From Candidatus Nomurabacteria bacterium (GTDB lineage: Bacteria; Patescibacteriota; Minisyncoccia; Phycocordibacterales; UBA918): a stretch of DNA of 64,000 nt. The notes under the pieces were generated by a model. It was not told the origin of the DNA. It was given only the letters and a program-made list of their open reading frames with translations, and did not search any database. Made by a program: the position numbers and the translations under genes. The stretch spans positions 381,302 through 445,301 of the forward strand of contig JACKGE010000001.1 of assembly GCA_020632155.1 (NCBI GenBank), given 5' to 3'. Below, in pieces: positions 8,749-56,142 of this stretch (within the stretch, counting starts at the first letter, position 1; each line of letters begins with the position of its first letter).

Positions 8749-8856
8749 GCTCTGTAGTATATACCTTTAACAAACTGGAGTAGTAATAAGTTTCCCGTGT
8801 ATTGTTTTAATTGCCGTTAGTTTCTGTGCAGGCTAAAATGAGCGACACAAAACAGT

Positions 8857-9699: not shown

Positions 9700-9740
9700 G
9701 GTGGTCAGTGTTTAGATTTTGGGGCGCTATAATGTAAGGA

Positions 9741-35249: not shown

Positions 35250-35257
35250 CATTGTGT

Positions 35258-40717: not shown

Positions 40718-41479
40718 ATGAAGGCCGTCGTACTCAGTGTTCTTTTCTGGACAACACTCTCATTACTTTGGTGTTACTCACCTGACGCCTTAGCGCAGGT
40801 GATGCAGAGTAATAATTTTCAGATCCAAAGTGATTCGGTTAATGTCGGTGGCGGTAATGCAACTTCGAGTAATTATCGACTTGAAAGTACCGTGGGTGAA
40901 GTTGCTACAGGAGATAGTGATAGCAGTAGCTTTTCTCTGCGCGCCGGTTATCAGCAAATGCAAGAAGTGTATCTTTCACTTAGTAACGTAGGAGACCTCA
41001 CACTTACCCCAACCATCCCTGGTGTAACTGGTGGTAGTGCCAGCGGCACGGTATCGGTGGTGGTCACGACTGACAGTCTGGCTGGCTATCAACTTTCTAT
41101 CGCGGCAGACAATGATCCAGCGATGCAGAGCGACCTTGACTCGATTGCAGACTACGTCCCTATCGGTGCTGTACCAGACTTTACCTTTAATTACGCCGCC
41201 AGCGACGCTCTCTTTGGCTACTCACCGGAAGGTGGTGATATCACTGTGCGGTACCGAGATAACGGAGCGGATACCTGTGGTATTGATACTACCGATACTT
41301 CTTCTCGATGTTGGGATGGTCTTTCAACAACATCAGCAACCATAGCGCGAGGTGCTGGTTCAAATCATCCAGACGGGGCTACTACTACCGTCCGTTTCCA
41401 AGTCAGTATCGGCGGTGCTGTTGCGCAAACTGTCGGTACATACGTGGCCACTACCACCATAACTGCGCTGCCACTATGA
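40718..41479 (+). CDS. secreted beta-rich surface/fimbrial-like protein (paralog of 38908..39612)
   Basis: ATG at 40718 is preceded by AAGGGG. Signal peptide MKAVVLSVLFWTTLSLLWCYSPDALA. See paralog evidence above. The ORF-track start at 40679 would overlap the upstream gene. Confidence 0.55.
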   Translation: MKAVVLSVLFWTTLSLLWCYSPDALAQVMQSNNFQIQSDSVNVGGGNATSSNYRLESTVGEVATGDSDSSSFSLRAGYQQMQEVYLSLSNVGDLTLTPTIPGVTGGSASGTVSVVVTTDSLAGYQLSIAADNDPAMQSDLDSIADYVPIGAVPDFTFNYAASDALFGYSPEGGDITVRYRDNGADTCGIDTTDTSSRCWDGLSTTSATIARGAGSNHPDGATTTVRFQVSIGGAVAQTVGTYVATTTITALPL

Positions 41480-42987
41480 CCTTGGTTACGCGTTTACTTA
41501 CCGCTCTATTGCTACTCTGTCCCGCTATGACATTTGCTGTTTCGGGGGATTTCAATATTCGCGTACAAGTTGGTGATGATACCGAAGCCCCGACCACTCC
41601 GGCAAATGTAACTGCTACGCCTATTAGTACCGATCAAATAGACCTTGATTGGGATGATAGTACTGACAACTTGGTACTTTCCGGCTATCAAGTATTTCGT
41701 GACGGCCTCCAAATTGCCACTACAACGGTTTCGAGCTACGCTGACTCAGGACTTACTGCCGATACACTCTACTCATACTATGTGACCGCGTTTGATAACA
41801 GTTACAACGTATCGAGTTCGTCGGTGACCGTGGCCACGTCAACTCTGCCCGTTGTAGTAGCAACCTCAACGGCAACGTCGAGTAGCCATAATTATGGTAG
41901 CTATATTCCGCGTGGTCCTGTAGAGGTAGAAAATTTTCAGATATCCTCTAGTGAAACAACAGCAGTTATAACATTTGACACAAACGTATACACAAAGTTA
42001 CTGCTTCGTTGGGGTCGAACACCGTCTTATGAACTTGGATACATTGGTAGTGATGCGTACAAGACATCCTACCGCACTCTCATCACTGATCTTGAGCCGG
42101 GGACTACATATGAACTAGAGCTACGGCTTACTGAGCGGTTTGGAGTTGAGGAATACGTAAAGCGGGTATCGTTTACTACAGACAACGGTCCGGATACGGT
42201 GCCTCCAGCCAACGTCTGGGGTCTTACTGCATCGCTCCAAAATGATGGCAGTATAACGCTTAACTGGCAGAACCCACATGAGCCTGACTTTAGCCATGTC
42301 CGTGTCGTTGGTAGCAACCTGTTTTATCCTGCCGGTCCGTATGATGGTTGGATTGTCTATGAGGGTGAGGGAACAAGCGTTCGTGATCCACGAACTGACC
42401 TCGGTCGGTACCGATATTACTCAGTTTTTTCGTACGATACATCGGGCAACATATCTTCTGGCGCGGTGGTTATGGTTGACACAGACCCCACTGCACCACC
42501 AGAGCTACCAAGCGAATCTCTTGATACCTCGTTTGATCTTTTTATGAGCGACCTGCAATTTTGGCAATCGGGTTCGTACGTTTCGCCTGACGCTGAGACG
42601 ATAGCTCTTAAGCGCGGAGTGCCGTTTACAGTATCGCTTCCGTATGGGGTGGTGCCTGAGCATCTCAAGACCATCGTGGTGACGTTCCATCATCCCGTCA
42701 ACACCAATCAGATATTCTCATTTATTCTACGTATCAATCATGACAAAACAGCGTATGAGGCTACCATTGGCGGTCTTGAGACACTCGGCTACTATCCAAG
42801 TACCTTGGAACTCTATGACTACGAAACGCGCACCATAAAGCGAGCGGAAGGACAAATTAACGTGATTAGTGAGATTATTCCGCAGATCAAACACGAAAAT
42901 AAGTTTCTTGTCTGGTGGTTTCTGTGGCCAGTTATACTCTTAGTACTTCTGCTTTTGATACTCCTACGTTCTCGGTCACGTGGTTGA
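41476..42987 (+). CDS. fibronectin type III domain cell-surface protein with C-terminal TM anchor
   Basis: ATGA start/stop overlap with the upstream gene. Signal peptide MTLVTRLLTALLLLCPAMTFA. FN3-like TPISTDQIDLDWDDSTDNLVLSGYQVFRDG...YSYYVTAFDNSYNVS. C-terminal FLVWWFLWPVILLVLLLLILLRSRSRG. Confidence 0.65.
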   Translation: MTLVTRLLTALLLLCPAMTFAVSGDFNIRVQVGDDTEAPTTPANVTATPISTDQIDLDWDDSTDNLVLSGYQVFRDGLQIATTTVSSYADSGLTADTLYSYYVTAFDNSYNVSSSSVTVATSTLPVVVATSTATSSSHNYGSYIPRGPVEVENFQISSSETTAVITFDTNVYTKLLLRWGRTPSYELGYIGSDAYKTSYRTLITDLEPGTTYELELRLTERFGVEEYVKRVSFTTDNGPDTVPPANVWGLTASLQNDGSITLNWQNPHEPDFSHVRVVGSNLFYPAGPYDGWIVYEGEGTSVRDPRTDLGRYRYYSVFSYDTSGNISSGAVVMVDTDPTAPPELPSESLDTSFDLFMSDLQFWQSGSYVSPDAETIALKRGVPFTVSLPYGVVPEHLKTIVVTFHHPVNTNQIFSFILRINHDKTAYEATIGGLETLGYYPSTLELYDYETRTIKRAEGQINVISEIIPQIKHENKFLVWWFLWPVILLVLLLLILLRSRSRG

Positions 42988-43045
42988 GGATAGATGCTCT
43001 TTTTACTTCGAGTGATGGAGTATAGTTAAGGTATAGATAAAATAT

Positions 43046-44086
43046 ATGAGTAATAAAGCAAAAATAGCTATCAATGGTTTTGGGCGTATTGGCCGCGCTT
43101 TCTTTCGGTTGGCGGTGCTTGATCCGAACCTAGAGATAGTGGCCATTAATGACCTTGGAGATATCAATAACCTTGCATATCTACTGCAGTACGACACCGT
43201 CTACGGAAGAAGTCCGCTGGAGATTTCGGTGGAAGGTACCATGTTGGTGGTAAATGGACAGAAAATAACGTTTATCAGTGAAAGGGATCAGACCAAACTG
43301 CCGTGGGGAGACCTCGGTATTGATATCGTCCTTGAAGCCACTGGTGTGTTTGCTGGATATGACAAGTCTAAGTTTCACCTTGAAGCTGGTGCTAAGCGAG
43401 TGGTCATCTCTGCTCCGGTCAAAGACGATCCGGCTGCTGCTGGAGTCGTGGGCGGTACGGTCCTCATGGGAGTCAATGAGGACACACTTGCTGGCCAGCA
43501 GATATCTTCTAATGCATCATGCACCACCAATGCTGCTAGTCCGCTTATTGGTATTCTCAAAGAAAGTATCGGTATCGAAAAGGCACTCCTTAATACGGTT
43601 CATGCCTATACGGCCACGCAGTCACTAGTTGATGGTCCAAGTAAGAAGGACCTTCGCTCGGGACGAGCAGCGGCGCAAAACATTATCCCTAGTTCGACTG
43701 GAGCGGCTATTGCCACTACCTTGGCTCACAGCGAGCTGGCCGGTAAGTTTGATGGCATTGCCATGCGCGTGCCGGTGCCAGTCGGGTCCATTGTGGACAT
43801 TACATTCGTGGCCAGTCGCGAGACCACTGTAGAAGAAGTGAACGCTGCGCTTACAGAGGCAGCAGCCAGTAGTCAGTGGCAGGATATCTTTGCCGTTACC
43901 ACCGAGCCGATTGTTTCCTCCGATATCATTGGCGCTCCGTACGCTTCGATTGCTGACCTTTCGTTTACACGCGTTGCAGGAGGCAACTTGGTCAAGGTTT
44001 TGGCGTGGTATGACAATGAGACCAGTTACACGCATACATTGGTCAAACATGTTATTGCCGCCGCTGCGCAGCTACCATCAGCCTAA
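43046..44086 (+). CDS. gap: glyceraldehyde-3-phosphate dehydrogenase (type I)
   Basis: KIAINGFGRIGRAFFR NAD-binding start. Catalytic SNASCTTNAASPL motif. 346 aa. Confidence 0.9.
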   Translation: MSNKAKIAINGFGRIGRAFFRLAVLDPNLEIVAINDLGDINNLAYLLQYDTVYGRSPLEISVEGTMLVVNGQKITFISERDQTKLPWGDLGIDIVLEATGVFAGYDKSKFHLEAGAKRVVISAPVKDDPAAAGVVGGTVLMGVNEDTLAGQQISSNASCTTNAASPLIGILKESIGIEKALLNTVHAYTATQSLVDGPSKKDLRSGRAAAQNIIPSSTGAAIATTLAHSELAGKFDGIAMRVPVPVGSIVDITFVASRETTVEEVNAALTEAAASSQWQDIFAVTTEPIVSSDIIGAPYASIADLSFTRVAGGNLVKVLAWYDNETSYTHTLVKHVIAAAAQLPSA

Positions 44087-44091
44087 TCACC

Positions 44092-44586
44092 ATGTCACTA
44101 CCAACCATCTACATTGCCACTGACCATTCCGGTTTTGAGCTGAAAGAGATTCTGCGTGAATTTCTCAGTAGCGAACTTGGTTACACGGTAGAGGATTGTG
44201 GTGCGGTTAGTCTCGATAGTACGGATGATTATCCGGACTTTGTCCACGCTGCAGCAGCCGCGGTAGCAGAAGACCCAGGAACACGTCGGGGCATCGTCAT
44301 TGGTGCATCAGGACAAGGGGAGGCAATGGTTGCCAATCGCTACGCGGGCGTTCGAGCAGCGGTCTACTACGGTGCACCAGCTAAAGAGCAGACTGACGCT
44401 ACTGGCGCTACGCTTGATATGATTGAGTCAACACGACAACATAATGACGCCAATGTACTGTCACTGGGAGCTCGGTTTCTTGAGATTACAGCAGCAAAAG
44501 AAGCAGTACGAAAATGGCTTGAGACATCCTTTACGGCAGAAGAACGACATGTCCGTCGCATACAAAAGATAGAGGAAACACAATAA
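44092..44586 (+). CDS. rpiB: ribose-5-phosphate isomerase B (RpiB/LacAB family)
   Basis: IYIATDHSGFELKEILREFL...GIVIGASGQGEAMVANRYAGVRAA core. 164 aa. Confidence 0.8.
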   Translation: MSLPTIYIATDHSGFELKEILREFLSSELGYTVEDCGAVSLDSTDDYPDFVHAAAAAVAEDPGTRRGIVIGASGQGEAMVANRYAGVRAAVYYGAPAKEQTDATGATLDMIESTRQHNDANVLSLGARFLEITAAKEAVRKWLETSFTAEERHVRRIQKIEETQ

Positions 44587-44589
44587 GTC

Positions 44590-45255
44590 ATGAACTATAC
44601 GGTCGTTCCATCATTGCCCGCTAAAGACTTCACTGAGATAACCACTCTCGCGACTGCGCTTCGCGGCGTGGTCAGCGAACTGCAGATAGATATTGTAGAT
44701 GGACAGTTTGTACCGCCACTCGCGTGGCCGTTTACAGAGCCTGCGCCACTTGATGCATTCAGTAAGCTGGCGCTTGTCGCTCGTGACTTTTCTATTGAAA
44801 TGGACTGCATGGTCGCGCGTCCGGAGCAGTATCTTGATGTGTTTGTAACGCTTGGTGTTAAGCGTGTAGTGATCCATATGGGTTCAACAGAGGCGTATGA
44901 AAATATCTTTGCTCACGCAAATGCCCACAACTACACTGTTGGCTTTGCGCTTATGAATGATCGGCCGCTTCAAGAACTGGAATTATACATGGACAAAATA
45001 TCATTTGTGCAATTAATGGGTATCAAAGAAATAGGACAGCAAGGTCAACCCTTTGATGAGCGCACGCTCAAGCGAGCACATGAACTCCACGTTCAGTATC
45101 CAACGCTGGAGATAGCCGTTGATGGCAGTGTGAACAAAGATACCATCGCTCGCCTTAAGCAGGCTGGGGTGAATCGCTTTTTGCCCGGCTCAGCAGTAGC
45201 TAAGCAAGCGGACCCTGCTACTGCGTACAGAGAATTGGTGGCGCTCATTAATTAA
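44590..45255 (+). CDS. rpe: ribulose-phosphate 3-epimerase
   Basis: ELQIDIVDGQFVPP (HxDxMDGxFVPN-like) ... IAVDGSVNKDTIARLKQAGVNRFLPGSAV (xVDGGV...AGA..VxGSA). 221 aa. Directly follows rpiB and precedes tkt. Confidence 0.8.
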   Translation: MNYTVVPSLPAKDFTEITTLATALRGVVSELQIDIVDGQFVPPLAWPFTEPAPLDAFSKLALVARDFSIEMDCMVARPEQYLDVFVTLGVKRVVIHMGSTEAYENIFAHANAHNYTVGFALMNDRPLQELELYMDKISFVQLMGIKEIGQQGQPFDERTLKRAHELHVQYPTLEIAVDGSVNKDTIARLKQAGVNRFLPGSAVAKQADPATAYRELVALIN

Positions 45256-45300
45256 CACCACGTATCAGTTTGGTACACCAAGGTGCTTTATACTAAGAGT

Positions 45301-46197
45301 ATGTTTTATCTCAGTGATAACGACGTTCATGAGTTGGAGCAAAAGGCGAATGATATTCGTGAGAGCACTATTGAGATGCTTATTGCTGCTGGCAGCGGTC
45401 ATACTGCTGGGCCGCTTGGTATGGCTGACATTTTTGCGCTCTTATACTTTCGTGTCCTTAAACATGATGCTAAAAATCCTGACTGGGAGGAACGTGACCG
45501 CTTCATTTTAAGTAACGGCCACATTTGTCCGGGCCTCTATGCAACCTTGGCGCACGCTGGCTACTTTCCTGAAGAGGAACTTTTGACGCTACGAAAATTT
45601 GGCTCACGTCTTCAAGGGCACCCACATAAGGGAACACTACCGGGTATTGAATCCAGCTCAGGTCCCTTAGGGAGCGGCCTCTCGCAGGCGGTTGGTATGG
45701 CGCTTGCTCTTAGGATGGATAATCCATACACATCACAGTACGTGTACTGTATGACTGGTGATGGAGAGATCAATGAGGGACAGATATGGGAAGCGGCCAT
45801 GTTGGCCGGCAAGGAGGAACTTCATAACCTTATCGTCATTATTGACCGTAATGCCATTCAGATTGATGGCTATACCAAAGACGTCATGCCACTGGAGCCA
45901 CTTCGCGAAAAGTGGGAGGCGTTTAACTTTGATGTGCAGGAGGTTGACGCTCACAATATTCGCATGATGCACGACGCAATCGGAAAAGCACAAGCGGTAT
46001 ATGGGCAGCCGTCGGTTATCATTGCGCACTCTATTGCCTCAAAAGGTATTGATGTGTTTGAACGTGATTTTAGGTGGCACGGCAATCCGCCCGGTAAAGG
46101 TCCTGAGGACCGTGTGCCTAAGGGTGAACAAGTTGAGACGGCACTCAGGAAACTCCGTACCCTTGGTGGTGCTATTGAAGCTAGTGATATCGACTGA
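45301..46197 (+). CDS. transketolase, N-terminal (TPP-binding PP-domain) subunit of a split enzyme
   Basis: GSGHTAGPLGMADIFALLY...RDRFILSNGHICPGLYATLAHAGYF...GSGLSQAVGMALA. Ends at ~300 aa with a stop. The C-terminal half is a separate gene at 46616. Confidence 0.85.
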   Translation: MFYLSDNDVHELEQKANDIRESTIEMLIAAGSGHTAGPLGMADIFALLYFRVLKHDAKNPDWEERDRFILSNGHICPGLYATLAHAGYFPEEELLTLRKFGSRLQGHPHKGTLPGIESSSGPLGSGLSQAVGMALALRMDNPYTSQYVYCMTGDGEINEGQIWEAAMLAGKEELHNLIVIIDRNAIQIDGYTKDVMPLEPLREKWEAFNFDVQEVDAHNIRMMHDAIGKAQAVYGQPSVIIAHSIASKGIDVFERDFRWHGNPPGKGPEDRVPKGEQVETALRKLRTLGGAIEASDID

Positions 46198-46236
46198 GTG
46201 TAGGTTACAGGTGTTAGGTTATAGTGTATTAGGAAG

Positions 46237-46596
46237 ATGAATACAATCAAATCATTTAAGGATCTAATTGTTTGGCAGAAATCTATCATTCTAGTTAAAG
46301 AAGTTTACACTTTATTGCAGAAGTTGCCGACAGATGAAAGGTTCGGACTTATTAGTCAGATGAGACGTTCTGCTGTGTCGATACCCTCGAATATTGCAGA
46401 AGGTTCCAAGCGTGGTACGAGTAAGGACTATCTTCAATTTTTACGCATAGCAAATGGATCATGTGCAGAATTAGAAACACAGTTAGTAATTACAAAGGAG
46501 CTTTATGGTGTTACAGTTGGTGAAGTAGACGAATTACTTATTGAAGTACAGAAAATGTTACAAAGTATTATTAAGACGCTCAGTACTGAAACCTAA
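46237..46596 (+). CDS. four-helix-bundle protein of the 23S rRNA intervening-sequence (IVS) / Avd-like family
   Basis: DLIVWQKSIILVKEVYTLLQKLPTDERFGLISQMRRSAVSIPSNIAEGSKRGTSKDYLQFLRIANGSCAELETQLVI matches the family consensus (VWQKA..L...IY.LT..FP..E.FGL.SQ.RRAAVSIPSNIAEG..R.S.KD...FL.IA.GS..EL.TQL.IA) almost position-for-position. Confidence 0.85.
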   Translation: MNTIKSFKDLIVWQKSIILVKEVYTLLQKLPTDERFGLISQMRRSAVSIPSNIAEGSKRGTSKDYLQFLRIANGSCAELETQLVITKELYGVTVGEVDELLIEVQKMLQSIIKTLSTET

Positions 46597-46615
46597 ATAC
46601 TTTAACCTATAACCT

Positions 46616-47605
46616 ATGCGTTTAGCAGATCATTTAGATAGAAATATATTCACTGATAACGTTGAACAAGTTCCGAATCGCAATGGCTATGGCGAGGGTC
46701 TTAAAGAGGCGGGAGAGAAAGATGTACGGGTAGTAGCACTTTCCGCTGATCTTACCGGCTCAACGAAGACCAACCTATTCGCCGATGCATTTCCGGAGCG
46801 GTTTGTGCAAGTGGGTATTGCTGAGCAAAATATGGCGTCGGTGGCATCGGGTATGGCAGCAGTGGGGAAGATACCCTTTATTGCTTCATACGCCATGTTT
46901 TCACCCGGACGAAGTTGGGAACAAGTGCGTACTACAATTGCGTACAACAACAGCAATGTAAAGGTTATCGGGGCCCACTCTGGTGTCTCGGTAGGACCTG
47001 ACGGCGCTACCCACCAAGCGGTGGAAGACATGGCCATTATGCGAGTGATTCCAAACATGGTGGTCATTGCACCGTGTGATGTGCATGAGGCACGTAAAGC
47101 CACACTGTGGGCTGCGGAGTATGAAGGTCCGGTATACATTCGTATCGCCCGTGAAAATTCTCCGGTAGTGACCACGGCAGACAGCCCGTTTGATTACGGT
47201 AAAGCGCAACTACTTGCTGAAGGTGTTGATAGTGCTGAGAATAAAGTCGGAATTATCACCACTGGCATATTGGCTCACAACGCCCTTATGGCGGCTAAAG
47301 AGCTAAACGAAGCTGGTATTAGCACTTCTGTTCTTCATGTACCCTTTATAAAACCACTTGATGAAGAAGCTGTGCTTGCCTTAGCAAAAAATAACGACTT
47401 TATTGTCACTCTTGAGGAACACCAAGTGGCCGGAGGTTTGGGTAGCGCAGTAGCCGAGTATCTTTCTGAGACTCATCCAACTAAGATCATTCGCCTTGGT
47501 GTACACGACCAGTTTGGTCAGTCTGGAACACCGGAAGAACTACTTGCCCACTATGGTATGGACACCAAAACGCTACTAGATACAGTAAGAAAAAATTTGA
47601 ATTAA
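46616..47605 (+). CDS. transketolase, C-terminal (pyrimidine-binding plus C-terminal domain) subunit
   Basis: FVQVGIAEQNMASVASGMAAVGKIPFIASYAMFS...GAHSGVSVGPDGATHQAVEDMAIMRVIPNMVVIAPCDVHEARKA. Confidence 0.9.
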   Translation: MRLADHLDRNIFTDNVEQVPNRNGYGEGLKEAGEKDVRVVALSADLTGSTKTNLFADAFPERFVQVGIAEQNMASVASGMAAVGKIPFIASYAMFSPGRSWEQVRTTIAYNNSNVKVIGAHSGVSVGPDGATHQAVEDMAIMRVIPNMVVIAPCDVHEARKATLWAAEYEGPVYIRIARENSPVVTTADSPFDYGKAQLLAEGVDSAENKVGIITTGILAHNALMAAKELNEAGISTSVLHVPFIKPLDEEAVLALAKNNDFIVTLEEHQVAGGLGSAVAEYLSETHPTKIIRLGVHDQFGQSGTPEELLAHYGMDTKTLLDTVRKNLN

Positions 47606-47618
47606 GGTACGTGCTACT

Positions 47619-48095
47619 ATGTTGAATATGCAAAGAGGCTTCACTCTCATTGAACTCCTTATTGTGATAACTATCATTGGCATTCTTTCTAGCGTGGTCT
47701 TAGTGAGTCTCAGTAGTGCGCGCGAGAAGAGTCGCGATGCGGCTCGGGTGTCCCAAATAAAAGAGGTTAAGACTGCTTTGGAGGTGTACCGTTCAGACAA
47801 TGGCGGGTACATCAATATCTGCAGTGGATCACCGGGCAACCTCCCGGCACGCGCGGCGGCGCTTGCGCCTAACTACATGAGCCGCTTGCCAACTGATCCT
47901 TTACATACCGGCAATGACGATTATTTGTACTGTGGTAGTGCCAACGTAAATGGTAGTGGTCCAGGGTATGGTATTCGAATTCGCTTTGAAGATACTGACC
48001 GGCCTGGGACCAATGCCAATGGGTACTGTAAAACGGGAGTAAATATCAGCACGGGATGGTGGGGAACTGGCGTGCCGGTCTGTGAAGGATTGTAA
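47619..48095 (+). CDS. type IV pilin-like protein (prepilin-type N-terminal cleavage/methylation domain)
   Basis: MLNMQRG-FTLIELLIVITIIGILSSVVLVSLSSAREKSRDAAR: class III signal peptide with G/F cleavage site and an E at +5. Confidence 0.8.
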   Translation: MLNMQRGFTLIELLIVITIIGILSSVVLVSLSSAREKSRDAARVSQIKEVKTALEVYRSDNGGYINICSGSPGNLPARAAALAPNYMSRLPTDPLHTGNDDYLYCGSANVNGSGPGYGIRIRFEDTDRPGTNANGYCKTGVNISTGWWGTGVPVCEGL

Positions 48096-48098
48096 AAT

Positions 48099-48632
48099 AT
48101 GCTTGAGGTACATAAAAAATCAAACGGCTTCACCCTCATTGAACTTCTCGTGGTGATTGCGATCATTGGTGTTTTGGCCAGTGTGGTCTTAGTGAGTCTC
48201 AGTAGTGCGCGCGAGAAGAGTCGCGATGCGGCTCGTAAGGCAGCTTTACAAGAGGTTGCAAAGGCCCTTGAGTTATATCATTTGGATAATGGGACGTATT
48301 CTATTTTAGGAGCAGGGGCCGGTGGAAATGGCAACGGTTGGTTTTCATACGTTGGTGGCGCATACCCAAAATCAGTTGCACAGCAGTTAAAGGATGATGG
48401 ATATCTCGGAGGAGTAGTTGTAGATCCATCAGGTGCAAAACTTGGGAATCAAAGTGGTCGCAGTGGATATATGATCATTGCTAATGACAGTAACTTCACT
48501 CTCTGGGCCAACTTGGAGAGCCCTTCTACAGAGGACACTGCTACATTGAACACCTGCACTTTTAATAATTATGATAACTATCACAGTAGTTACCCAGCAA
48601 CGGCTAGGATGAATTACTGTATCAGCAACTAA
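48099..48632 (+). CDS. type IV pilin-like protein, paralog 2
   Basis: KKSNG-FTLIELLVVIAIIGVLASVVLVSLSSAREKSRDAARKA. The N-terminal coding DNA is nearly identical to paralog 3. Confidence 0.8.
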   Translation: MLEVHKKSNGFTLIELLVVIAIIGVLASVVLVSLSSAREKSRDAARKAALQEVAKALELYHLDNGTYSILGAGAGGNGNGWFSYVGGAYPKSVAQQLKDDGYLGGVVVDPSGAKLGNQSGRSGYMIIANDSNFTLWANLESPSTEDTATLNTCTFNNYDNYHSSYPATARMNYCISN

Positions 48633-48653
48633 AAACTGCCTGAGGCAGTTTTT
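48632..48653. terminator. bidirectional rho-independent terminator between pilin 2 and convergent PfkB kinase gene
   Basis: AAAACTGCCtgaGGCAGTTTTT: perfect 9-bp stem, 3-nt loop, and T/A runs on both sides. Confidence 0.8.
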
Positions 48654-48670
48654 AGTTGGTACCCCTTCTC

Positions 48671-49681
48671 CTATACTCTCTTAGCTTTGTAATCCTCGGG
48701 GGCCTCAGCCAGATGTTTCTCAAGTACGTCGCGCGTAAGCAGGCCTTTTTGAGCACCAATGTGCTGTACAACAGACATAGAGTTGATTGGACCCCATGAT
48801 AGAGCTTCAGCCGGAGAGAGTCCAAGCGCAATAGCGGTTGTAAAAGTGCTTGAAAATGAGTCACCGGCGCCAGTGCGGTCGACGGGTGGTGCTGGATCTG
48901 GATACATTGGCATGTGCCACGCTTGGTCGTTTTCATCCACTACATAGGCACCATTAGGACCATCAGTGATAACCGGCATTTTTGGACCCAGTTTCTTAAA
49001 GTCTCGGATGAGTGTCGGCACATCTTGCTCTTTGCTGCCGAGTATCTCCTGCGCCTCTTCTTTGTTACAGAAGAATATTTCAGTTACTTCGTACACATCC
49101 TTGAGCGCCTCATGTCCAACACGAATTTGGAAGGTGCCGGGCTGAAAGACCAACTTGGTCTCAGGGTGAGCTTTTACATAGGCGGCAATTTCATGATGGA
49201 ATGGGAGACCATGCTCACCGATGGAAGAGAAGTAGATGTAACGCGGTGGCGTTTCAAAATCTGGCAGGAAGTATGGATAGTGTTCATGTTTGATGAGGAT
49301 AGTGCGCTCGGGGCCGTACCGGAGGACGTAGTGGTAGTTAGTTATCTTGCCCTCGTGTACTTTTACATAGTCGGTGTGGACACCTTCGGTGCGCAAAGCG
49401 TCAAGACAATCTTGACCCCAACGGTCATGGCCAACGTTGGTGACAAGAGCAGTGCGGAGGCCCAGGCGATGCGCCGCCACGGCAGCATTGGGTGAGTTAC
49501 CAACTGCATTTACTACTGTCACATCTTCGTACGGCAATTTACCACCAAACGGCATATGGAGGGTTTTTTTGCCCGTGTCCATATCAGTAGAAACATCAGC
49601 GTCGTCCTTGGAAAGCTGAATAAATGCGTCTATTACAATATCGCCCAAAGCGACAAAATCATATTGGTTTGACATATACAC
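48671..49681 (-). CDS. PfkB-family carbohydrate kinase (ribokinase/adenosine kinase-like)
   Basis: N-terminal DFVALGDIVIDAF and C-terminal anion-hole/catalytic motif VDRTGAGDSFSSTF (DTxGAGD). 336 aa. Confidence 0.8.
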   Translation of the reverse strand: MYMSNQYDFVALGDIVIDAFIQLSKDDADVSTDMDTGKKTLHMPFGGKLPYEDVTVVNAVGNSPNAAVAAHRLGLRTALVTNVGHDRWGQDCLDALRTEGVHTDYVKVHEGKITNYHYVLRYGPERTILIKHEHYPYFLPDFETPPRYIYFSSIGEHGLPFHHEIAAYVKAHPETKLVFQPGTFQIRVGHEALKDVYEVTEIFFCNKEEAQEILGSKEQDVPTLIRDFKKLGPKMPVITDGPNGAYVVDENDQAWHMPMYPDPAPPVDRTGAGDSFSSTFTTAIALGLSPAEALSWGPINSMSVVQHIGAQKGLLTRDVLEKHLAEAPEDYKAKRV

Positions 49682-49747
49682 AGATTATATCAGTGCCGGA
49701 GTGTGTAAAACGAGAAGTGTGAACACACGCACACAGTATAATGAAAA

Positions 49748-50275
49748 GTGATGTTTCAGTCGAAAGAGCTCAACCAAGGCTTCACTCTCATTGAACTTCT
49801 CGTGGTGATCGCGATCATTGGTGTTTTGGCCAGTGTGGTCTTAGTGAGTCTCAGTAGTGCGCGCGAGAAGAGTCGCGATGCGGCTCGTATGGCACAACTT
49901 AAAGAAATAGAGAAAGCCCTTAATTTATTTTATACTGAGAACGGCCGCTACCCCTCAGAAGGTGCACCAGATAATGCTAATACTGGTGGTACCGGCCGGA
50001 TTTGCCGATCTTGTACTGGTGGTATTAATACCATTCTTGGTCAATATATGGGTGCTGTTCCAGAAGATCCGTCGCACGATGGCTCAAACTATTACTACTA
50101 TTATGATGGCAGACAGACCTGCGGTGGTAATCCCGTACAAGCAGTAGTGGCTGCTCACAACATGGAAAATCCTAACAATAGTAATACTAATGACACCAAA
50201 TGCACCAGTTGGGGTGGTGAGGGAGGAATTGGACAGAATGACTCATACAATGTTGTTTTAGGTGATGCCTATTAA
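49748..50275 (+). CDS. type IV pilin-like protein, paralog 3
   Basis: SKELNQG-FTLIELLVVIAIIGVLASVVLVSLSSAREKSRDAARMA. Confidence 0.8.
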   Translation: MMFQSKELNQGFTLIELLVVIAIIGVLASVVLVSLSSAREKSRDAARMAQLKEIEKALNLFYTENGRYPSEGAPDNANTGGTGRICRSCTGGINTILGQYMGAVPEDPSHDGSNYYYYYDGRQTCGGNPVQAVVAAHNMENPNNSNTNDTKCTSWGGEGGIGQNDSYNVVLGDAY

Positions 50276-50315
50276 AGCCTTTTCTGTTACCACAGAGTGT
50301 GCTACATTACCTGCC

Positions 50316-50942
50316 ATGACAACAACACTTCAAGTAACAAAACGGGATGGGACAGCTTCGCCTGAATGCATTCCAGCCGTGGTTTACGGTCCAAAACAAG
50401 AATCACTGGCACTCAATATCGACCGCAAAACCTTTGAAAAGCTCTTCAAAGAAGCTGGTGAATCAACTATCATCAGTCTTGAAGGTCTTGATGGTGAAGT
50501 TGAGGTGCTCGTGCACGATGTTTCATTTAATCCGGTCAGGGGCGGCATTCAGCATGTCGACTTCTACGCTATTGAACGCGGTAAGGAGCTCACTACTCAT
50601 GTCGGTATCGAGTTCATTGGTGAAGCTCCAGCTGTGAAAGGCGGTGGTGTTCTCAATAAAGCTCTTCACGAACTTGAGGTAACCTGTCGCCCAAGCAAAC
50701 TACCACAACATATTACTGTTGACGTCAGTGTCCTCACTGACTTTGAAGAGGTCATTCGTGTCAAAGATATATCTCTGCCAGAGGGGGTAAAAGTTGAAAA
50801 CGATCCCAATGAAACGGTTGCCTTGGTGGTGCCGGTGGCTGAAGAGAAGGAGGAAGATGCTGCTCCAGTTGATATGGCTGCTATCGAAGTTGAGGGTGAG
50901 AAAACTACTTCAGAAGATGGAGAAGGGAAAGAAGCTGAGTAG
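50316..50942 (+). CDS. rplY: 50S ribosomal protein L25 (Ctc-type, with acidic C-terminal extension)
   Basis: LQVTKRDGTASPECIPAVVYGPKQESLALNIDRKTFEKLF...LVHDVSFNPVRGGIQHVDFYAI. ATG at 50316 is chosen because the upstream GTG/ATG extension would overlap the pilin stop. Confidence 0.85.
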   Translation: MTTTLQVTKRDGTASPECIPAVVYGPKQESLALNIDRKTFEKLFKEAGESTIISLEGLDGEVEVLVHDVSFNPVRGGIQHVDFYAIERGKELTTHVGIEFIGEAPAVKGGGVLNKALHELEVTCRPSKLPQHITVDVSVLTDFEEVIRVKDISLPEGVKVENDPNETVALVVPVAEEKEEDAAPVDMAAIEVEGEKTTSEDGEGKEAE

Positions 50943-51006
50943 ACCCAGAGAGAAAACCACTACCGATGCGGCAGTGGTTTTTTCTTTTGGTATACTTATT
51001 ACTAAT

Positions 51007-52371
51007 ATGAAACGCCTACTGGTGGTATGTGTTGTTGGTGTGTTGCTGTGGCCACAAGCTGCTGTTTTTGGTGAGACTGACGCTGAACGTCGGGCGCGGC
51101 TCGAGAAAGAACTGCAGGTGGTCGAAAAGCAGATCATTCAGCAGCAGTCACTCCTTGAAGGTAAACAAGTCGAACGACAGTCACTCGAGCGCGACCTCAA
51201 TATTCTCGACACACAGATCAATAAGGCAGCCCTCGGTATTGAAGCCCGCGAACTTGCCATTGAGCAGCTGACCGATCAAATCGGCGAGAAAGAAGAGGTC
51301 ATTGATATTTTGACTGAGCGACTCCAAAAGCAGCGTCAATCTATTGCAGAGCTAGTACGCAAGACACAAGTGGTGGATGACTACTCTTTGGTGGAACTGA
51401 TGCTGAGTAACCAGAATCTCTCTGAGTTCTTTGTGGACTTTGAGAATTACCGCGTCATCAATGACTCACTAAATGAATCATTGGAAGCCCTCAGTACTAT
51501 TAAGTCCGACACAGAATCCCAAAAGACCTCGCTTGAAGATAAAAAGCTCACCGAGGCAGAACTCAAGGAGCTGCAAGAGCAAGAGAAGCTCGCTATAGAA
51601 AGAAAGGAGAACGAAAAAGAACAGATTCTTGATGTCACTAAAGGTGAGGAAGCAGCGTATAAGCAGCTGTTGCAAGCCCAGCAAAAAACAGCTGCCGAGA
51701 TCCGCGCCCAGCTCTTTGAGCTCGCTGGAGGCGGCGGTAAGATACCATTCCCAGACGCGGTTCAATATGCTAAAGCAGCTTCAGCGCAAACAGGAGTGCC
51801 AGCGGCACTGGTGTTAGCAATCTTGGAGCAGGAGTCATCGTACGGAGCTAATATCGGTTCCTGTGCGTACGACGATATTGTCTACGGACGAGCGGTCATG
51901 CATCCAGATCGTGACCAGCCCGTCTTTGTTGCGATAGCTAACGCACTTGGTTTTAACCCTAGTACGCAACAGGTCTCTTGTCCGTGGATACGTAATGGTG
52001 AACGTATTGGGTGGGGTGGTGCTATGGGTCCGTCGCAGTTCATTCCGTCTACGTGGGCTATATACGGCGGTATCGTAAGTACTGGTAGTGGCTACGCGTA
52101 TAGTGCTTCAAGCGACGCCATTCGCCAGCTGACCGGCAAGAGCAGTCCATCTAATCCGTTCAATAACCAAGATGCCTTTATGGCCACGGCACTCCTCATG
52201 CGTGACAATGGAGCCGCTGGCGGCACGTATAATGCCCAGTGGACGGCCGCCATCCGCTATTTCGCCGGCTGGGGCGGTGCTAGCAACCCGATCAACCATC
52301 CGTATGGAGATAATGTTATGGCCCGCAAAGCGCGCTTGGAGCAAGAGATAAAGACCTTGGAGGGAAGCTAA
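51007..52371 (+). CDS. secreted coiled-coil protein with C-terminal lysozyme-like/SLT-type peptidoglycan hydrolase domain (PcsB/EnvC-like architecture)
   Basis: Signal peptide MKRLLVVCVVGVLLWPQAAVFG. ~250 aa of heptad-rich coiled coil (LEKELQVVEKQIIQQQSLLEGKQVERQSLERDLNILDTQINKA...). C-terminus AILEQESSYGANIG resembles the catalytic E-S motif of lytic transglycosylases. Confidence 0.55.
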   Translation: MKRLLVVCVVGVLLWPQAAVFGETDAERRARLEKELQVVEKQIIQQQSLLEGKQVERQSLERDLNILDTQINKAALGIEARELAIEQLTDQIGEKEEVIDILTERLQKQRQSIAELVRKTQVVDDYSLVELMLSNQNLSEFFVDFENYRVINDSLNESLEALSTIKSDTESQKTSLEDKKLTEAELKELQEQEKLAIERKENEKEQILDVTKGEEAAYKQLLQAQQKTAAEIRAQLFELAGGGGKIPFPDAVQYAKAASAQTGVPAALVLAILEQESSYGANIGSCAYDDIVYGRAVMHPDRDQPVFVAIANALGFNPSTQQVSCPWIRNGERIGWGGAMGPSQFIPSTWAIYGGIVSTGSGYAYSASSDAIRQLTGKSSPSNPFNNQDAFMATALLMRDNGAAGGTYNAQWTAAIRYFAGWGGASNPINHPYGDNVMARKARLEQEIKTLEGS

Positions 52372-52425
52372 ACCCGAAGGCATTTATTGATTTTTTTTAA
52401 CCATCTGTTATAGTTACCGCCACTT

Positions 52426-52695
52426 ATGAAAACAGACATTCATCCGGAAAACTACCGTCTTGTTATTTTCCACGATAACTCAAGTGGGGAGCGCTTTTTG
52501 GTTGGTTCTACTATTGAGACCAGCGAAACGGACAAGTGGGAAGACGGCAGTGAGTACCCACTGGCTCGTGTTGATGTCACTAGCGCATCACACCCGTTTT
52601 ACACCGGACAGGAAAAGGTCATGGACACTGCCGGTCGGGTAGAGCGTTTCAAAGCTCGCGCCGAAAAAGCAGCTACACGCAAAAAGAAGGCGTAA
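52426..52695 (+). CDS. rpmE: 50S ribosomal protein L31 (type B, non-zinc)
   Basis: [61 protein letters not shown]. Confidence 0.9.
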
Positions 52696-52698
52696 CGA

Positions 52699-52735
52699 AA
52701 AGACCGCTATCACACTTTGGTGGAGCGGTTTTTTC
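52699..52735 (+). terminator. rho-independent terminator after rpmE
   Basis: AAAAGACCGCTatcacactttggtggAGCGGTTTTTTC. Confidence 0.65.
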
Positions 52736-52755
52736 TATGGCATCATATAGACATC

Positions 52756-53736
52756 ATGGAGTTGGATCAAGATAGACTAAATATTTTCAAAGAAAATCAA
52801 AAAACGCAATTCTTGGCGTCACAGTTTGAACTTGGGCTCGAAAAATTAGCTGAGGCACGTGAACTAGCTGCCTCTGACCCAGAAATGGCCGAGCTTGCCA
52901 CTGCAGAAATCGCTGAGTTGGAAGCGCAGCTACAGGCTGAATTTGCTGAGATGGACCGAATCATTGAAGCTTCTAAGGAAGAGGAAGCTAAGCCCTACGG
53001 TGTGGCCCTTGAAGTGCGGGCGGGCGCCGGTGGGGATGAAGCGGCACTTTTTGCCGAGGAGTTAGCACTTATGTATCGTCGCTACGCCGAGGTACAGGGT
53101 TGGCCAGTTACGGTCACTAATGAATCACGGTCCGGTGTTGGTGGGTATAAGGAGGCTTCGTTTGAGATCATTAGTCCCAATGTCTACGATGCCTTTCGTT
53201 TTGAGACCGGAGTGCACCGCGTGCAGCGAGTGCCGGTAACGGAAAAAGCTGGCCGTATCCATACCTCAACTGCGTCAGTAGCAGTCTTGCCAATGCGTAA
53301 AAAACCAACCATCGAGATCAATCCAAGTGACATTGATATGGAATTCTCGCGTTCTGGCGGTGCTGGCGGACAGAACGTCAACAAAGTAGAAACCGCGGTG
53401 CGACTGGTCCATAAACCGACCGGAGTTGATGTGCGTTGTCAAAGTGAGCGGTCGCAGCTAAAGAACCGCGAGAAAGCCATGGCCCTTCTCACCGCTAAAC
53501 TTGAAGCGCTCCACGAAGAGGAAGAGAGCAAAAAACACGCCAATCTGCGCAGTAAACAGATCGGTACCGGTGATCGTAGTGAAAAGATACGCACCTATAA
53601 CTTTCCGCAAAATCGCATCACTGATCACCGCATCAAAGAAAGTTGGCACACTATTGAGGCCACCCTTGGTGGCGCACTCCAGCCGATCATTGATGCTATG
53701 CATGCTGCTGAGGACGCACTCATGGCTGAAGAATAA
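52756..53736 (+). CDS. prfA: peptide chain release factor 1
   Basis: [17 protein letters not shown]...[25 protein letters not shown]...[24 protein letters not shown] (GGQ motif). ATG at 52756 is chosen because the upstream in-frame M lies inside the rpmE terminator. Confidence 0.9.
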
Positions 53737-53745
53737 TGATTTACA

Positions 53746-53777
53746 AAGGGCCACCCTTCGCGAAGGGTGGCCCTTTG
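53746..53777 (+). terminator. rho-independent terminator after prfA
   Basis: AAAGGGCCACCCTTCGCGAAGGGTGGCCCTTTG: perfect 14-bp stem. Confidence 0.8.
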
Positions 53778-53985
53778 TAAGTTGCCAGTGATTGTGAGCT
53801 GTGGTAGTATTGCCGCGCTTGTGCTCTGGCGCTTTTTTATTATCAAAAACGTCTCGGTACAGTCTCCAGACTCCTGAAGCTGTCACATAAGGCTCGTGTG
53901 TTGCTTGTTACAGCAGCCCCTCGATGTACCCTTATACCAGTTTATTAATTAGCAAGGACAGTTTGGATAAACAATCAACACAATC

Positions 53986-54738
53986 ATGTCAACCAATGAC
54001 CAGAATCTCATTGAGCGCTTGTTCTCAGCTGGTGCTCACTTCGGCTTTTCAAAAAGTCGTCGTCACCCAACAGTAAAACCATATCTGTTTGGTAATAAGC
54101 AGGGAACCGACATTTTCGATCTTGAGAAAACCTCGGAGCTTCTTGCTGCTGCTAAAGCAGCGGTCGCAGAGGCCGGTGAACAAGGCAAGACCGTCTTATT
54201 TGTTGGTACTAAAGAAGAAGTAAAGAAGCTTGTTGAACACTTTGCCAAAGAGGTGGCTGCGCCGTATGTCATTAATCGCTGGATCGGAGGTACGGTGACC
54301 AACTGGTCAGAGATCAAGAAGCGTATCGCGCGCCTTCATGAGCTTATTGCAGAAGGAGAGTCTGGTGAACTCGAACGCAAATACACTAAGAAAGAACGTG
54401 TACTCATTGGTCGCGAGGCTGACAAACTCACATTTAATTTTGGTGGTATTAAAGATATCGAAAAGACCCCTGATATGTTGTTGGTTGTTGATCCACGTCA
54501 CGAATCCATTGCCGTAGCTGAAGCCAGTGAGCTTGGCATCCCAGTCGTTGGTATCATGAGTTCTGATAACGACCTCACCAAAGTGACGTATCCGGTCCTT
54601 GTAAACGATGCATTGCAGGCTAGTGTCACGTTGGCTCTTACCGAGCTTACGACAGCTTACAGCGAGGGAAAGGCTAAGTATGTTCCCAAGCCAACCCGCA
54701 CTGACAGCCGTCCGCGCCGCATGAACACCCGTTCATAA
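53986..54738 (+). CDS. rpsB: 30S ribosomal protein S2
   Basis: LFSAGAHFGFSKSRRHPTVKPYLFGNKQGTDIFDLEKT...VLFVGTKEE. Confidence 0.95.
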   Translation: MSTNDQNLIERLFSAGAHFGFSKSRRHPTVKPYLFGNKQGTDIFDLEKTSELLAAAKAAVAEAGEQGKTVLFVGTKEEVKKLVEHFAKEVAAPYVINRWIGGTVTNWSEIKKRIARLHELIAEGESGELERKYTKKERVLIGREADKLTFNFGGIKDIEKTPDMLLVVDPRHESIAVAEASELGIPVVGIMSSDNDLTKVTYPVLVNDALQASVTLALTELTTAYSEGKAKYVPKPTRTDSRPRRMNTRS

Positions 54739-54788
54739 GTGCTGAGAGCACTGATACGCTTACAAACGTTCTAACGATAAAACATTAT

Positions 54789-55376
54789 ATGGAGATCAGT
54801 TCTACACAAATAAAGGAGTTACGCGACCAGACCGGCATCTCAGTGATGCAGTGTAAGAAAGCACTTGAAGAAGCTGATGGTGATATGGCTAAGGCTTTGG
54901 TCATTCTTAAGAAAAAGCGCAGCGAAGCAGCCGAAAAGAAATCTGACCGTGAGCTTGGTGCCGGTACGATTGGCGTCTATGTACACAACACGAATGAAGT
55001 GGCTGCATTTGTAAAACTTGCGTCTGAGACTGATTTCGTATCAAAGAATGAAGAGTTTGTGAAATTGGCTAATGATATTGCCATGCACGTCGCCGCTATG
55101 AATCCAAAGTACATTGCTCGCGACGAAGTTGATGCTGAAGCTATGGAAGCCGCCAAGGCAGTGTTTGCTGAGGAGGTCAAAGACAAGCCGGCTGAAATGC
55201 AAGAAAAGATAATGGAAGGTAAGTTGGCAGCTTATTTCAAAGATCAGATACTCCTTGAGCAGCCATTTGTGAAGAATCCGGATATGACCATTGGTGAAAT
55301 GGTCTCTGGAGCGGTCCAGAAATTCGGTGAGAATGTCACTCTTGTAGAGGTGCAGCGCATGTCCATTAAGGGATGA
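54789..55376 (+). CDS. tsf: elongation factor Ts (short form)
   Basis: TQIKELRDQTGISVMQCKKALEEADGDMAKALVILKKK is the UBA-like N-domain of EF-Ts. Immediately downstream of rpsB, the conserved order. Confidence 0.9.
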   Translation: MEISSTQIKELRDQTGISVMQCKKALEEADGDMAKALVILKKKRSEAAEKKSDRELGAGTIGVYVHNTNEVAAFVKLASETDFVSKNEEFVKLANDIAMHVAAMNPKYIARDEVDAEAMEAAKAVFAEEVKDKPAEMQEKIMEGKLAAYFKDQILLEQPFVKNPDMTIGEMVSGAVQKFGENVTLVEVQRMSIKG

Positions 55377-55389
55377 TGAACACTAAGAC

Positions 55390-55424
55390 GCAAAAGTGCC
55401 GACCCTTTGGGTCGGCACTTTTGC
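55390..55424 (+). terminator. rho-independent terminator after tsf
   Basis: GCAAAAGTGCCGACCCtttgGGTCGGCACTTTTGC. Confidence 0.8.
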
Positions 55425-55468
55425 GTCCGCCGACTCTCTTGGTACAATGTCAGAAACATTAACGAATC

Positions 55469-55888: not shown

Positions 55889-55924
55889 ACCCTAACCACC
55901 TTCACTAAGGTAGTGGACACCTTT

Positions 55925-55995
55925 AAAATCTGAGAGGTGAGTCAGTCTGGGTGACTGATGAACGAGAGGACTCGTGACGACCCACGGTTTACAAA
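55925..55995 (-). pseudogene. degenerate partial copy of the 3' half of tRNA-Thr plus its downstream flank
   Basis: 55902..55995 and 56027..56115 are tandem ~125-bp repeats sharing CTAACCACCTTCACTAA...CTGAGAG...GACGACCCACGGTTTACAAA(A)CC. Copy 1 lacks the tRNA 5' half and has a diverged T-arm. Confidence 0.45.
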
Positions 55996-56069
55996 CCTTG
56001 AGACAGTTTCCCAAACTGTTTCAACTCTAACCACCTTCACTAATGTGGCAGATACGTTTAAACCCTGAG

Positions 56070-56142
56070 AGCCACCTGTCAGACTCGAACTGACGACCCA
56101 CGGTTTACAAAACCGTTGCTCTACCAACTGAGCTAAGGTGGC
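56070..56142 (-). tRNA. tRNA-Thr (anticodon TGT)
   Basis: Reverse complement GCCACCTTAGCTCAGTTGGTAGAGCAACGGTTTTGTAAACCGTGGGTCGTCAGTTCGAGTCTGACAGGTGGCT folds as a 73-nt cloverleaf. 7-bp acceptor, D-arm GCTC/GAGC, anticodon stem ACGGT/ACCGT with loop TTTGTAA, T-arm GTCAG-TTCGAGT-CTGAC. No encoded CCA. Confidence 0.85.

Follow-up and report, generated by a model that had tools for sequence, protein, structure and literature searches.

Three pilin genes with a common 5' tract

The DNA described here, hereafter the window, is a stretch of 64,000 nucleotides (64 kb; GC 48.5%) from a Candidatus Nomurabacteria bacterium (NCBI GenBank assembly GCA_020632155.1, contig JACKGE010000001.1, positions 381,302 to 445,301), and all coordinates refer to it unless another contig is named. 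The analysis places the organism in Candidatus Kaiserbacteria. The window contains three genes of prepilin type, pil1, pil2 and pil3, all of them intact open reading frames (ORFs), which share near their 5' ends tracts of 53 to 112 nt that are identical or nearly so. The coordinates of the genes, of the tracts and of the adjacent features are collected in Table 1.

A six-frame scan of the window yields exactly three prepilin motifs, those of pil1, pil2 and pil3, each with a short basic leader ending in G|FTLIELL, with G at position -1, F at +1 and E at +5; three ORFs with G|FTLIELL(I/V)V leaders had been recognized at these coordinates in an earlier, sequence-only reading of the locus. The three proteins match Pfam N_methyl with E values from 3e-9 to 4.5e-8 (3e-9 for pil1; the entry for the pil2 gene gives 5.4e-10) as well as the TIGR02532 prepilin domain with 34.5-37 bits (cut-off 16.3), and pil3 also reaches Pfam T2SSG (24.6 bits, cut-off 21). 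Assignment to the GspG major pseudopilin was considered and rejected, since the scores for the equivalog TIGR01710 (59, 53.6 and 58.7 bits) lie below the cut-off of 88.85 and the likeness is mostly N-terminal. An AlphaFold2 model, made for pil3 alone with 64 homologues, has a mean predicted local distance difference test (pLDDT) score of 93.6 and presents a 52-residue N-terminal helix (residues 14-65) and a head with a small beta-sheet (strands 116-125, 128-137 and 167-173); its best Foldseek matches in the PDB are type IV pilins and pseudopilins, namely C. difficile PilA1 and an enterotoxigenic Escherichia coli type IVb pilin (probability 0.98-0.99, E about 0.01-0.03). The three genes encode type IV pilins or type IV filament subunits with a class III signal peptide.

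Table 1. Pilin genes, shared tracts and adjacent features (aa, amino acids).
Feature	Coordinates	Strand	Remarks
pil1, prepilin-type gene, 158 aa	47619..48095	+	Intact ORF; alternative start 47628 (NCBI gene call) gives 155 aa
53-nt identical tract, pil1 copy	47694..47746	+	Exact three-way match; codes for VVLVSLSSAREKSRDAA(R)
pil2, prepilin-type gene, 177 aa	48099..48632	+	Intact ORF; 3 nt past pil1
112-nt tract in pil2	48126..48237	+	Common to pil3 with 2 mismatches; 53-nt core 48183-48235
Hairpin AAAAACTGCC-TGA-GGCAGTTTTT	48631..48653	.	Between the convergent pil2 and pfkB genes; read from the sequence, unlisted by the consensus scan
pfkB-family carbohydrate kinase gene, 334 aa from ATG	48671..49675	-	Pfam PfkB E 6.6e-34; sits between pil2 and pil3
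TATAAT hexamer	49737..49742	+	Perfect; 5 nt before the pil3 GTG/ATG start; read from the sequence
pil3, prepilin-type gene, 175 aa	49748..50275	+	Intact ORF; GTG 49748 or ATG 49751; divergent pfkB gene on one side, rplY on the other
112-nt tract in pil3	49778..49889	+	Common to pil2 with 2 mismatches; 53-nt core 49835-49887

The 53-mer of pil1 is repeated exactly in pil2 and pil3, as had been noticed from the sequence, with no further copy elsewhere in the window and no match in 100 shuffles. Between pil2 and pil3 the shared tract starts at the codon of G(-1), and the count of two mismatches in 112 nt given by the sequence-only reading is reproduced, both mismatches (48134/49786 and 48158/49810) being synonymous. 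In the 57 nt upstream of the 53-nt tract, where the peptide is equally conserved, pil1 differs from the other two genes at 14-15 sites, mostly synonymous. At the protein level, helix residues 20-37 are identical in all three proteins and residues 1-37 in pil2 and pil3, and the globular heads differ. Downstream of ...GCGGCTCG the three genes drop to approximately 50% nucleotide identity. The earlier description of the C-terminal domains as unrelated goes too far, as a weak similarity is kept among the three heads (28-56% identity over the first 18-71 residues past the tract, E 2e-6 to 8e-4).

The shared segments are too long, and too uniform at silent sites, to be ascribed to the general level of resemblance among these genes. 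Runs of 53 and 79 identical nt did not arise once in 200,000 permutations of the observed differences (estimated P below about 5e-6). Inside the tracts, codons for the same amino acid are identical at 17/18, 17/18 and 35/37 positions; the flanking counts are 12/26, 13/23 and 5/12, and Fisher tests of the difference give p of 8e-4, 7e-3 and 3e-4. From the codon usage of the window, about 28% same-codon identity per pair would be expected, and the probability that all 17 codons are the same amounts to 1.2e-10 for one pair and 5e-20 for all three genes together. The near-zero synonymous divergence in the shared segment, unlike that of the flanks, which the sequence-only reading had reported, is borne out. 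The strong constraint on the assembly helix that it offered as an alternative is contradicted by these same counts, and also by the comparison between genomes.

Comparison with orthologues in related genomes

Comparison pilins were taken from eight loci of relatives; in five syntenic relatives the housekeeping proteins are 59-84% identical to those of the window. An empirical null of 136 between-genome pilin pairs gives, for the first 37 codons, a same-codon fraction of 0.35 on average and 0.62 at most; the longest exact match is 10.6 nt on average and 23 nt at most. The window pairs lie at 0.76-0.95 and at 53-79 nt, respectively.

The remainder of the genes follows a different pattern. The pil3 orthologues are 58-68% identical to it (heads 58-66% against L002, L003, L004 and L005), and a pil3-type gene occupies the pfkB>pilin>rplY slot of both L002 and L003. 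pil2 belongs to a separate orthologue family, with up to 67% identity, of which a 61% identical member sits in the tkt>pilin<pfkB slot of L022, and the full-length homologues of pil1 reach 57% identity. Over their 5' 111 nt, the orthologues of pil3 are 63-77% and that of pil2 in L022 is 67% identical to the window, with 67-77% for the syntenic ones of L002, L003 and L022, whereas pil2 and pil3 are 98% identical to each other. Since slot and head are conserved while these 111 nt have diverged in the orthologues, the 5' ends of the window genes have a history other than that of the rest of the gene, which argues for a gene-conversion mosaic. The shared 18-residue segment VVLVSLSSAREKSRDAAR is found in 0 of 57 pil2 and pil3 orthologues of other organisms, so that the protein state is lineage-specific too; on average the orthologues have 29.5 of 37 residues in common with the N-terminal sequence of the window.

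Another Patescibacterium, L024, provides a control. It carries eight tandem pilins (6766-11144 of that contig) with the same first 29 mature residues, in which the codons have diverged over that region (fractions of identical codons of 0.25-0.70, no exact run above 35 nt), and to judge from these codons it illustrates what constraint alone would look like. The same array includes a reverse mosaic, in which the copies at 8355-8876 and 9379-9948 are about 99% identical from approximately codon 30 to the stop (with a 323-nt exact run) and have 5' ends with 14 synonymous differences and different leaders. The L024 pilin array adjoins a gene for a Peptidase_S74 protein of more than 5,500 aa.

Exact shared tracts recur in L004, where four pilins have tracts of 86, 69 and 39-45 nt, with a sequence of their own that differs from that of the window. 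Their starting point is the G/A(-1) codon or a site 30 nt inside the mature sequence, as compared with nt 57 in the window. In L005 a single pair shares a tract, of 30 nt, and L002 lacks such tracts. Since the breakpoints recur in the helix-coding region at differing places, general homologous recombination fits better than a site-specific system. The slots themselves also show turnover: the pilin type in the rplY slot differs between L005 and L002/L003, and that in the tkt slot between L002 and L022, the slot being empty in L003. As the slots hold different pilin types, head replacement over evolutionary time occurs as well, which leaves cassette exchange a modest probability.

Support from independent assemblies

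pil1, the pil2 tract and the initial 63 nt of the pil3 tract are found again in independent assemblies of this species, of which five contig ends fall inside the repeats. The same-species metagenome-assembled genome (MAG) GCA_020428955.1 at NCBI has one contig 100% identical to 49945-55453 and another, L014, 99.93% identical to 41135-48396, and lacks 48397-49944. L014 spans pil1 and the whole pil2 tract, the latter with 100% identity, and the sequence of pil1 is the same in L014 and in the ENA contig L015, which covers 45397-48140. At 48134, one of the two sites that distinguish pil2 from pil3, L015 has a T where the window has a C, i.e. the state of pil3 and pil1, at a distance of 7 nt from the contig end; this is a hint, though not a proof, of continuing exchange.

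Four short kinase contigs from four assemblies and three distinct sample sets (48208-49840, 48231-49837, 48332-49822 and 48471-49822) encode the exact pfkB protein and have pilin sequence at both ends. The Logan contigs L016 and L017 and the ENA contigs L018 and L019 stop within the pil3 tract, at 49822-49840. L016 stops exactly 30 nt inside the exact repeat on both sides, which equals k-1 for k=31 and is what a k=31 graph is expected to give at a true repeat. Single-nucleotide polymorphisms (SNPs) are unevenly placed in two of these contigs: all 5 of the 7.3-kb L014 lie within 330 nt directly upstream of pil1 (47281-47611), and all 6 of L017 within 22 nt of the kinase gene (49502-49523), spaced at every third base. 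Both clusters look like short recombination imports.

An exact look-up of the pil2 protein gave no entry, as the public assemblies are interrupted within this gene. A query with the 42-residue pilin N-terminus returned, as its 120 best database matches, fragments of 39-74 aa, none of them more than 89% identical and many labelled 'partial'. This fits assemblies of the candidate phyla radiation (CPR) often breaking past pilin 5' regions, with the caveat that the search method may favour short proteins. The repeats, or strain variation around them, fragment short-read assemblies.

Gene conversion and alternative explanations

We consider it probable that the identity of the tracts is the outcome of interlocus gene conversion, that is, ectopic homologous recombination, among anciently diverged pilin paralogs. 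The mosaic pattern is statistically significant and specific to the lineage, it recurs with another tract in another genome, and the 3' parts are orthologous and syntenic to genes of relatives. Inside the tract the paralogs of one genome are closer to each other than orthologues of different genomes are, as in concerted evolution; the tract is bounded, with heads that fall into separate orthologue families, as in a mosaic; and the synonymous identity goes beyond codon bias and protein constraint, according to both the codon-usage probability and the L024 control. The sequence-only reading had proposed gene conversion or cassette exchange among pilin loci, of which conversion of the constant 5' part among full-length, independently startable genes is upheld, and a Neisseria-like system is not, as the repeats are all direct, no 5'-truncated silent copies lie in the window and no recombinase was found among the 36 non-pilin ORFs scanned.

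The process could have run as follows. Protein constraint keeps the helix-coding 5' segment about 65-77% identical among pilin genes, and a likeness of this degree would allow a strand of one paralog to invade another. Repair of the heteroduplex, or a short double crossover, may then copy 50-110 nt from gene to gene, up to the point where homology is lost as the conserved ...SRDAAR segment ends. pil2 and pil3 would have been converted over the whole mature N-terminus (112 nt) and pil1 only over the 3' 53 nt. A plausible outcome is a set of interchangeable helices on three subunits with different heads. Dependence on RecA, the direction and timing of the transfers and any selective benefit (for example, helix compatibility for co-assembly) are inferred.

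Several points weigh against this interpretation or limit its reach. The analysis covers one 64-kb window of a genome, so that the tract-bearing pilins are counted there alone. No relative of the same genus or species group with diverged tracts was found, and with the relatives used at 59-84% in housekeeping proteins, ongoing conversion and one or two past events are indistinguishable, and the N-termini of the orthologues are uninformative as to the donor, both families being similarly variable. For pil1, which has no syntenic orthologue at hand, replacement of the 3' part instead of conversion of the 5' part is possible. Finally, the part of pil3 at 49841-49944 is without independent cover among the contigs retrieved.

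A broader reading takes the helix-coding 5' block of CPR bacteria, or Patescibacteria, as a portable homology module through which naturally competent episymbionts would reshuffle or replace host-binding pilin heads among fixed chromosomal slots and, by transformation, between cells. The module would then act as a recombinase-free cassette system that shapes host range, with the identical tracts, the slot turnover and the L024 reverse mosaic as its footprints. Both propositions are speculative, and we hold them to be rather improbable.

In programmed pilin switching, the block would be a recombination site joining a constant 5' end to alternative C-terminal cassettes, for phase or antigenic (host-range) variation; direct repeats would mediate deletions or duplications, or silent copies would serve as donors for conversion. 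It would account for a block that is sharply bounded, exactly at the constant/variable junction, and for slots occupied by different pilin types in related genomes; the L024 reverse mosaic and the population SNP at 48134, which makes pil2 match the pil3 state, would also be in line with it. Nevertheless, each of the three genes is complete and has a start codon and a leader peptide of its own, and searches of the 64 kb with the three genes (tblastn and blastn) found just these three and no 5'-truncated or silent pilin fragments, so that the silent cassettes to be looked for according to the sequence-only reading are missing at least from the window. There are likewise no inverted repeats of at least 30 nt in the window, no recombinases or reverse transcriptases among the 36 non-pilin ORFs scanned, and no G-quadruplex (G4) motif (G3+N1-7 x4) on either strand of 46001-51000. 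The three copies of the 53-mer are all direct and on the + strand, and an inversion switch is ruled out by this orientation. The position of the tract differs between the window and L004, which leaves no fixed site, and a deletion between the pil2 and pil3 repeats would lose the conserved pfkB gene. We thus regard programmed switching as unlikely.

The 53-nt core could instead have a function as nucleic acid, whether as an RNA structure, as a binding site for a small RNA or a protein, or as an uptake signal, and be selected at the DNA or RNA level in each gene. It is rich in GC (60% against the 48.5% of the window) and has the short palindromes GCGCGC and TCGCGA, and a 23-nt piece of it, CGCGAGAAGAGTCGCGATGCGGC, is exact in the pil3 orthologue of L002. 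The evidence on the other side makes such an element very unlikely: predicted folding of the 53-mer and of the three 5' regions is at the level of shuffled sequences (z from -0.34 to +0.79), the 53-mer is not conserved in the other orthologues and occurs nowhere else in the window, and the pil2/pil3 tract reaches well past the core. Scans of genome and metagenome contig collections with a degenerate back-translated pattern for SAREKSRDAAR gave 4 hits in each, of which 7 of 8 are chance matches in unrelated frames and a single one, on L013, is a real pilin, with 27/32 bases.

Purifying selection on the assembly helix, perhaps together with codon bias and without any recombination, starts from the fact that the segment is the most conserved part of type IV pilins, as the average of 29.5 out of 37 residues shared by orthologues attests. 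Constraint on the peptide does not, however, extend to synonymous sites, which are identical here against a probability of about 1e-10 per pair from codon usage. Moreover, orthologues vary at the positions shared here, identical N-terminal peptides in L024 use diverged codons, and pil1 has its mostly synonymous differences right upstream, where the peptide is just as conserved. Selection without recombination is therefore hardly credible. Just as little credit is due to a recent whole-gene duplication with very fast head divergence, to which the tandem arrangement of pil1 and pil2 might point, or to an assembly artefact collapsing similar 5' ends, of the kind that De Bruijn assemblers may produce from near-identical repeats. 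The heads fall into three distinct orthologue families of wide distribution, two of which occupy conserved slots, and the divergence past the tract includes synonymous sites; L014 independently spans pil1 and the pil2 tract, L016 ends as expected for true repeats, and the two mismatches that distinguish pil2 from pil3 are retained. Whole-gene duplication was rejected for the further reason that each head is an old lineage with its own orthologues (57-68%).

Known systems and significance

The gene pairs tufA/tufB, Campylobacter flaA/flaB and Helicobacter babA/babB are examples of gene conversion between paralogs. Closest to the present locus among known systems is this interlocus gene conversion, or concerted evolution, in bacterial paralogs, for which a definition and a survey are available (PMC6053082). 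The pilin tracts resemble these cases in that within-genome paralogs are closer than orthologues over a bounded tract, synonymous sites are homogenized and general homologous recombination is enough. They differ in that only a constant module of 53-112 nt is affected and each gene otherwise represents an old lineage of its own, whereas classical cases usually involve most of the gene.

In Neisseria, silent cassettes that lack a promoter and the 5' end donate the variable 3' part of the pilin gene to a single expression locus, with the assistance of a G4 element. This antigenic variation of pilE from pilS takes place by gene conversion (PMC4023411). Common to both systems are type IV pilin genes, non-reciprocal recombination between copies, presumed in the case of the window, and conserved blocks as homology anchors; in the window, by contrast, the shared part is the constant 5' one and every copy is complete, with neither silent cassettes (64 kb) nor a G4 motif (46001-51000). 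Site-specific pilin switches, i.e. the Moraxella Piv inversion (tfpQ/tfpI) and the R64 shufflon (Rci/pilV), depend on inverted repeats and on a recombinase encoded close by. They have in common with the present locus one constant pilin N-terminus with alternative C-termini and a crossover in the coding region, but in the window the copies all run in the same direction and none of the 36 scanned ORFs shows a recombinase domain.

In the lpl cluster of Staphylococcus aureus, a conserved internal block is the recombination unit of tandem paralogs (PMC2568036). The two cases are alike, with tandem or nearby surface-protein paralogs and a conserved stretch that lets variable parts reshuffle, and the junction in L024 lies inside the ORF as well. 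The lpl case rests on multi-strain unit shuffling, while ours rests on one species and distant relatives, with one repeat pair split by a housekeeping gene. Among CPR bacteria, Nanosynbacter lyticus TM7x has 12 pilins in 4 loci (PMC11623550). It has in common with the window many scattered pilin genes with conserved N-terminal features and very divergent heads, and differs from it in that a term search of that work returned no report of nucleotide-identical 5' blocks or of recombination of pilin genes. Nothing specific on the homogenization of pilin 5' ends in CPR bacteria was found in the literature searched.

Among the organelles by which uncultured CPR bacteria could attach to hosts and take up DNA, type IV pili are the foremost candidates, and the diversification of their many pilin genes has not been described so far. 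The locus indicates that ectopic recombination in the constant 5' region works among the pilin paralogs of Kaiserbacteria, and L004 and L024 suggest the same for other Patescibacteria. This is a familiar kind of event, gene conversion between paralogs, and reveals no new mechanism. As repeats of 50-110 nt fragment short-read MAGs at or near pilin genes, the pilin repertoires of CPR bacteria are probably under-counted and often annotated as partial.

Genomic neighbourhood and other features of the window

The pilin genes lie among housekeeping genes, in a cluster with pentose-phosphate and ribosomal-protein functions. Upstream there are a ribulose-phosphate epimerase gene and a split transketolase gene with a gene of the 23S-rRNA-intervening-sequence family between its halves, and pil1 starts 13 nt past the gene for the transketolase C-terminal subunit. 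Downstream follow rplY, a gene for an SLT-domain protein, rpmE, prfA, rpsB and tsf. That pil2 and pil3 are separated by a kinase gene on the opposite strand, as the sequence-only reading had it, is correct; the gene belongs to the pfkB family and its orthologues are 71-84% identical at syntenic loci. The other claim on gene order, that pil3 runs directly into rplY, holds only for the longest rplY ORF (GTG 50262), which overlaps pil3, and not for the ATG at 50316, which is the choice of NCBI on an identical contig and leaves a 40-nt spacer. Neither PilD, PilB, PilC, PilM nor other pilus machinery was detected with Pfam among the 36 non-pilin ORFs of the window. In a Joint Genome Institute metagenome contig (L023, 6175-7276), two pilin genes lie between rpsL-rpsG (plus one unannotated ORF) and fusA, which is another case of pilins within core translation operons in Patescibacteria.

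Concerning expression signals, the hairpin after pil2 is probably a bidirectional terminator. The TATAAT hexamer may, more speculatively, be pil3's own promoter and give rise to a leaderless or short-leader mRNA; a consensus scan matched no -35 box upstream of pil3, and no Shine-Dalgarno sequence is recognizable within 49737-49753. It should be noted that the promoter and terminator consensus scan gave counts no higher than shuffles and overlooked the obvious hairpin after pil2.

The gene between the N- and C-terminal transketolase genes (46237-46596, 119 aa) matches the 23S-rRNA-intervening-sequence family with E 1.7e-35 and has a weak bAvd-like match (E 1.4e-4); no reverse transcriptase was seen near it. 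L005 shares this insertion, which L002, L003 and L022 lack.

A second repeat pair occurs at the start of large repetitive surface-protein ORFs, where 26813-27391 and 28658-29245 are 84% identical over 595 nt, with cores at 27064-27130 and 28913-28979 (100%) and at 27150-27341 and 28997-29188 (99%); part of the segment is in different reading frames in the two copies. The pair points to mosaic recombination or a recent duplication within a further surface-protein family of this genome. The region 28554-38239 holds ORFs of 2231 and 995 aa, the second with DUF2341, Laminin_G_3 and Gly_rich_2 domains, and many internal DNA repeats, both of the GNVGIGTT type and glycine-rich. Past a 139-aa ORF without Pfam match, an apparently non-coding direct repeat of 48 nt (55889-55936 and 56024-56071) is 81% identical and 135 nt apart. 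A self reverse-complement match of L001 revealed a perfect palindrome of 40 nt at 53741-53780, right past the release-factor gene, which is probably a terminator hairpin.

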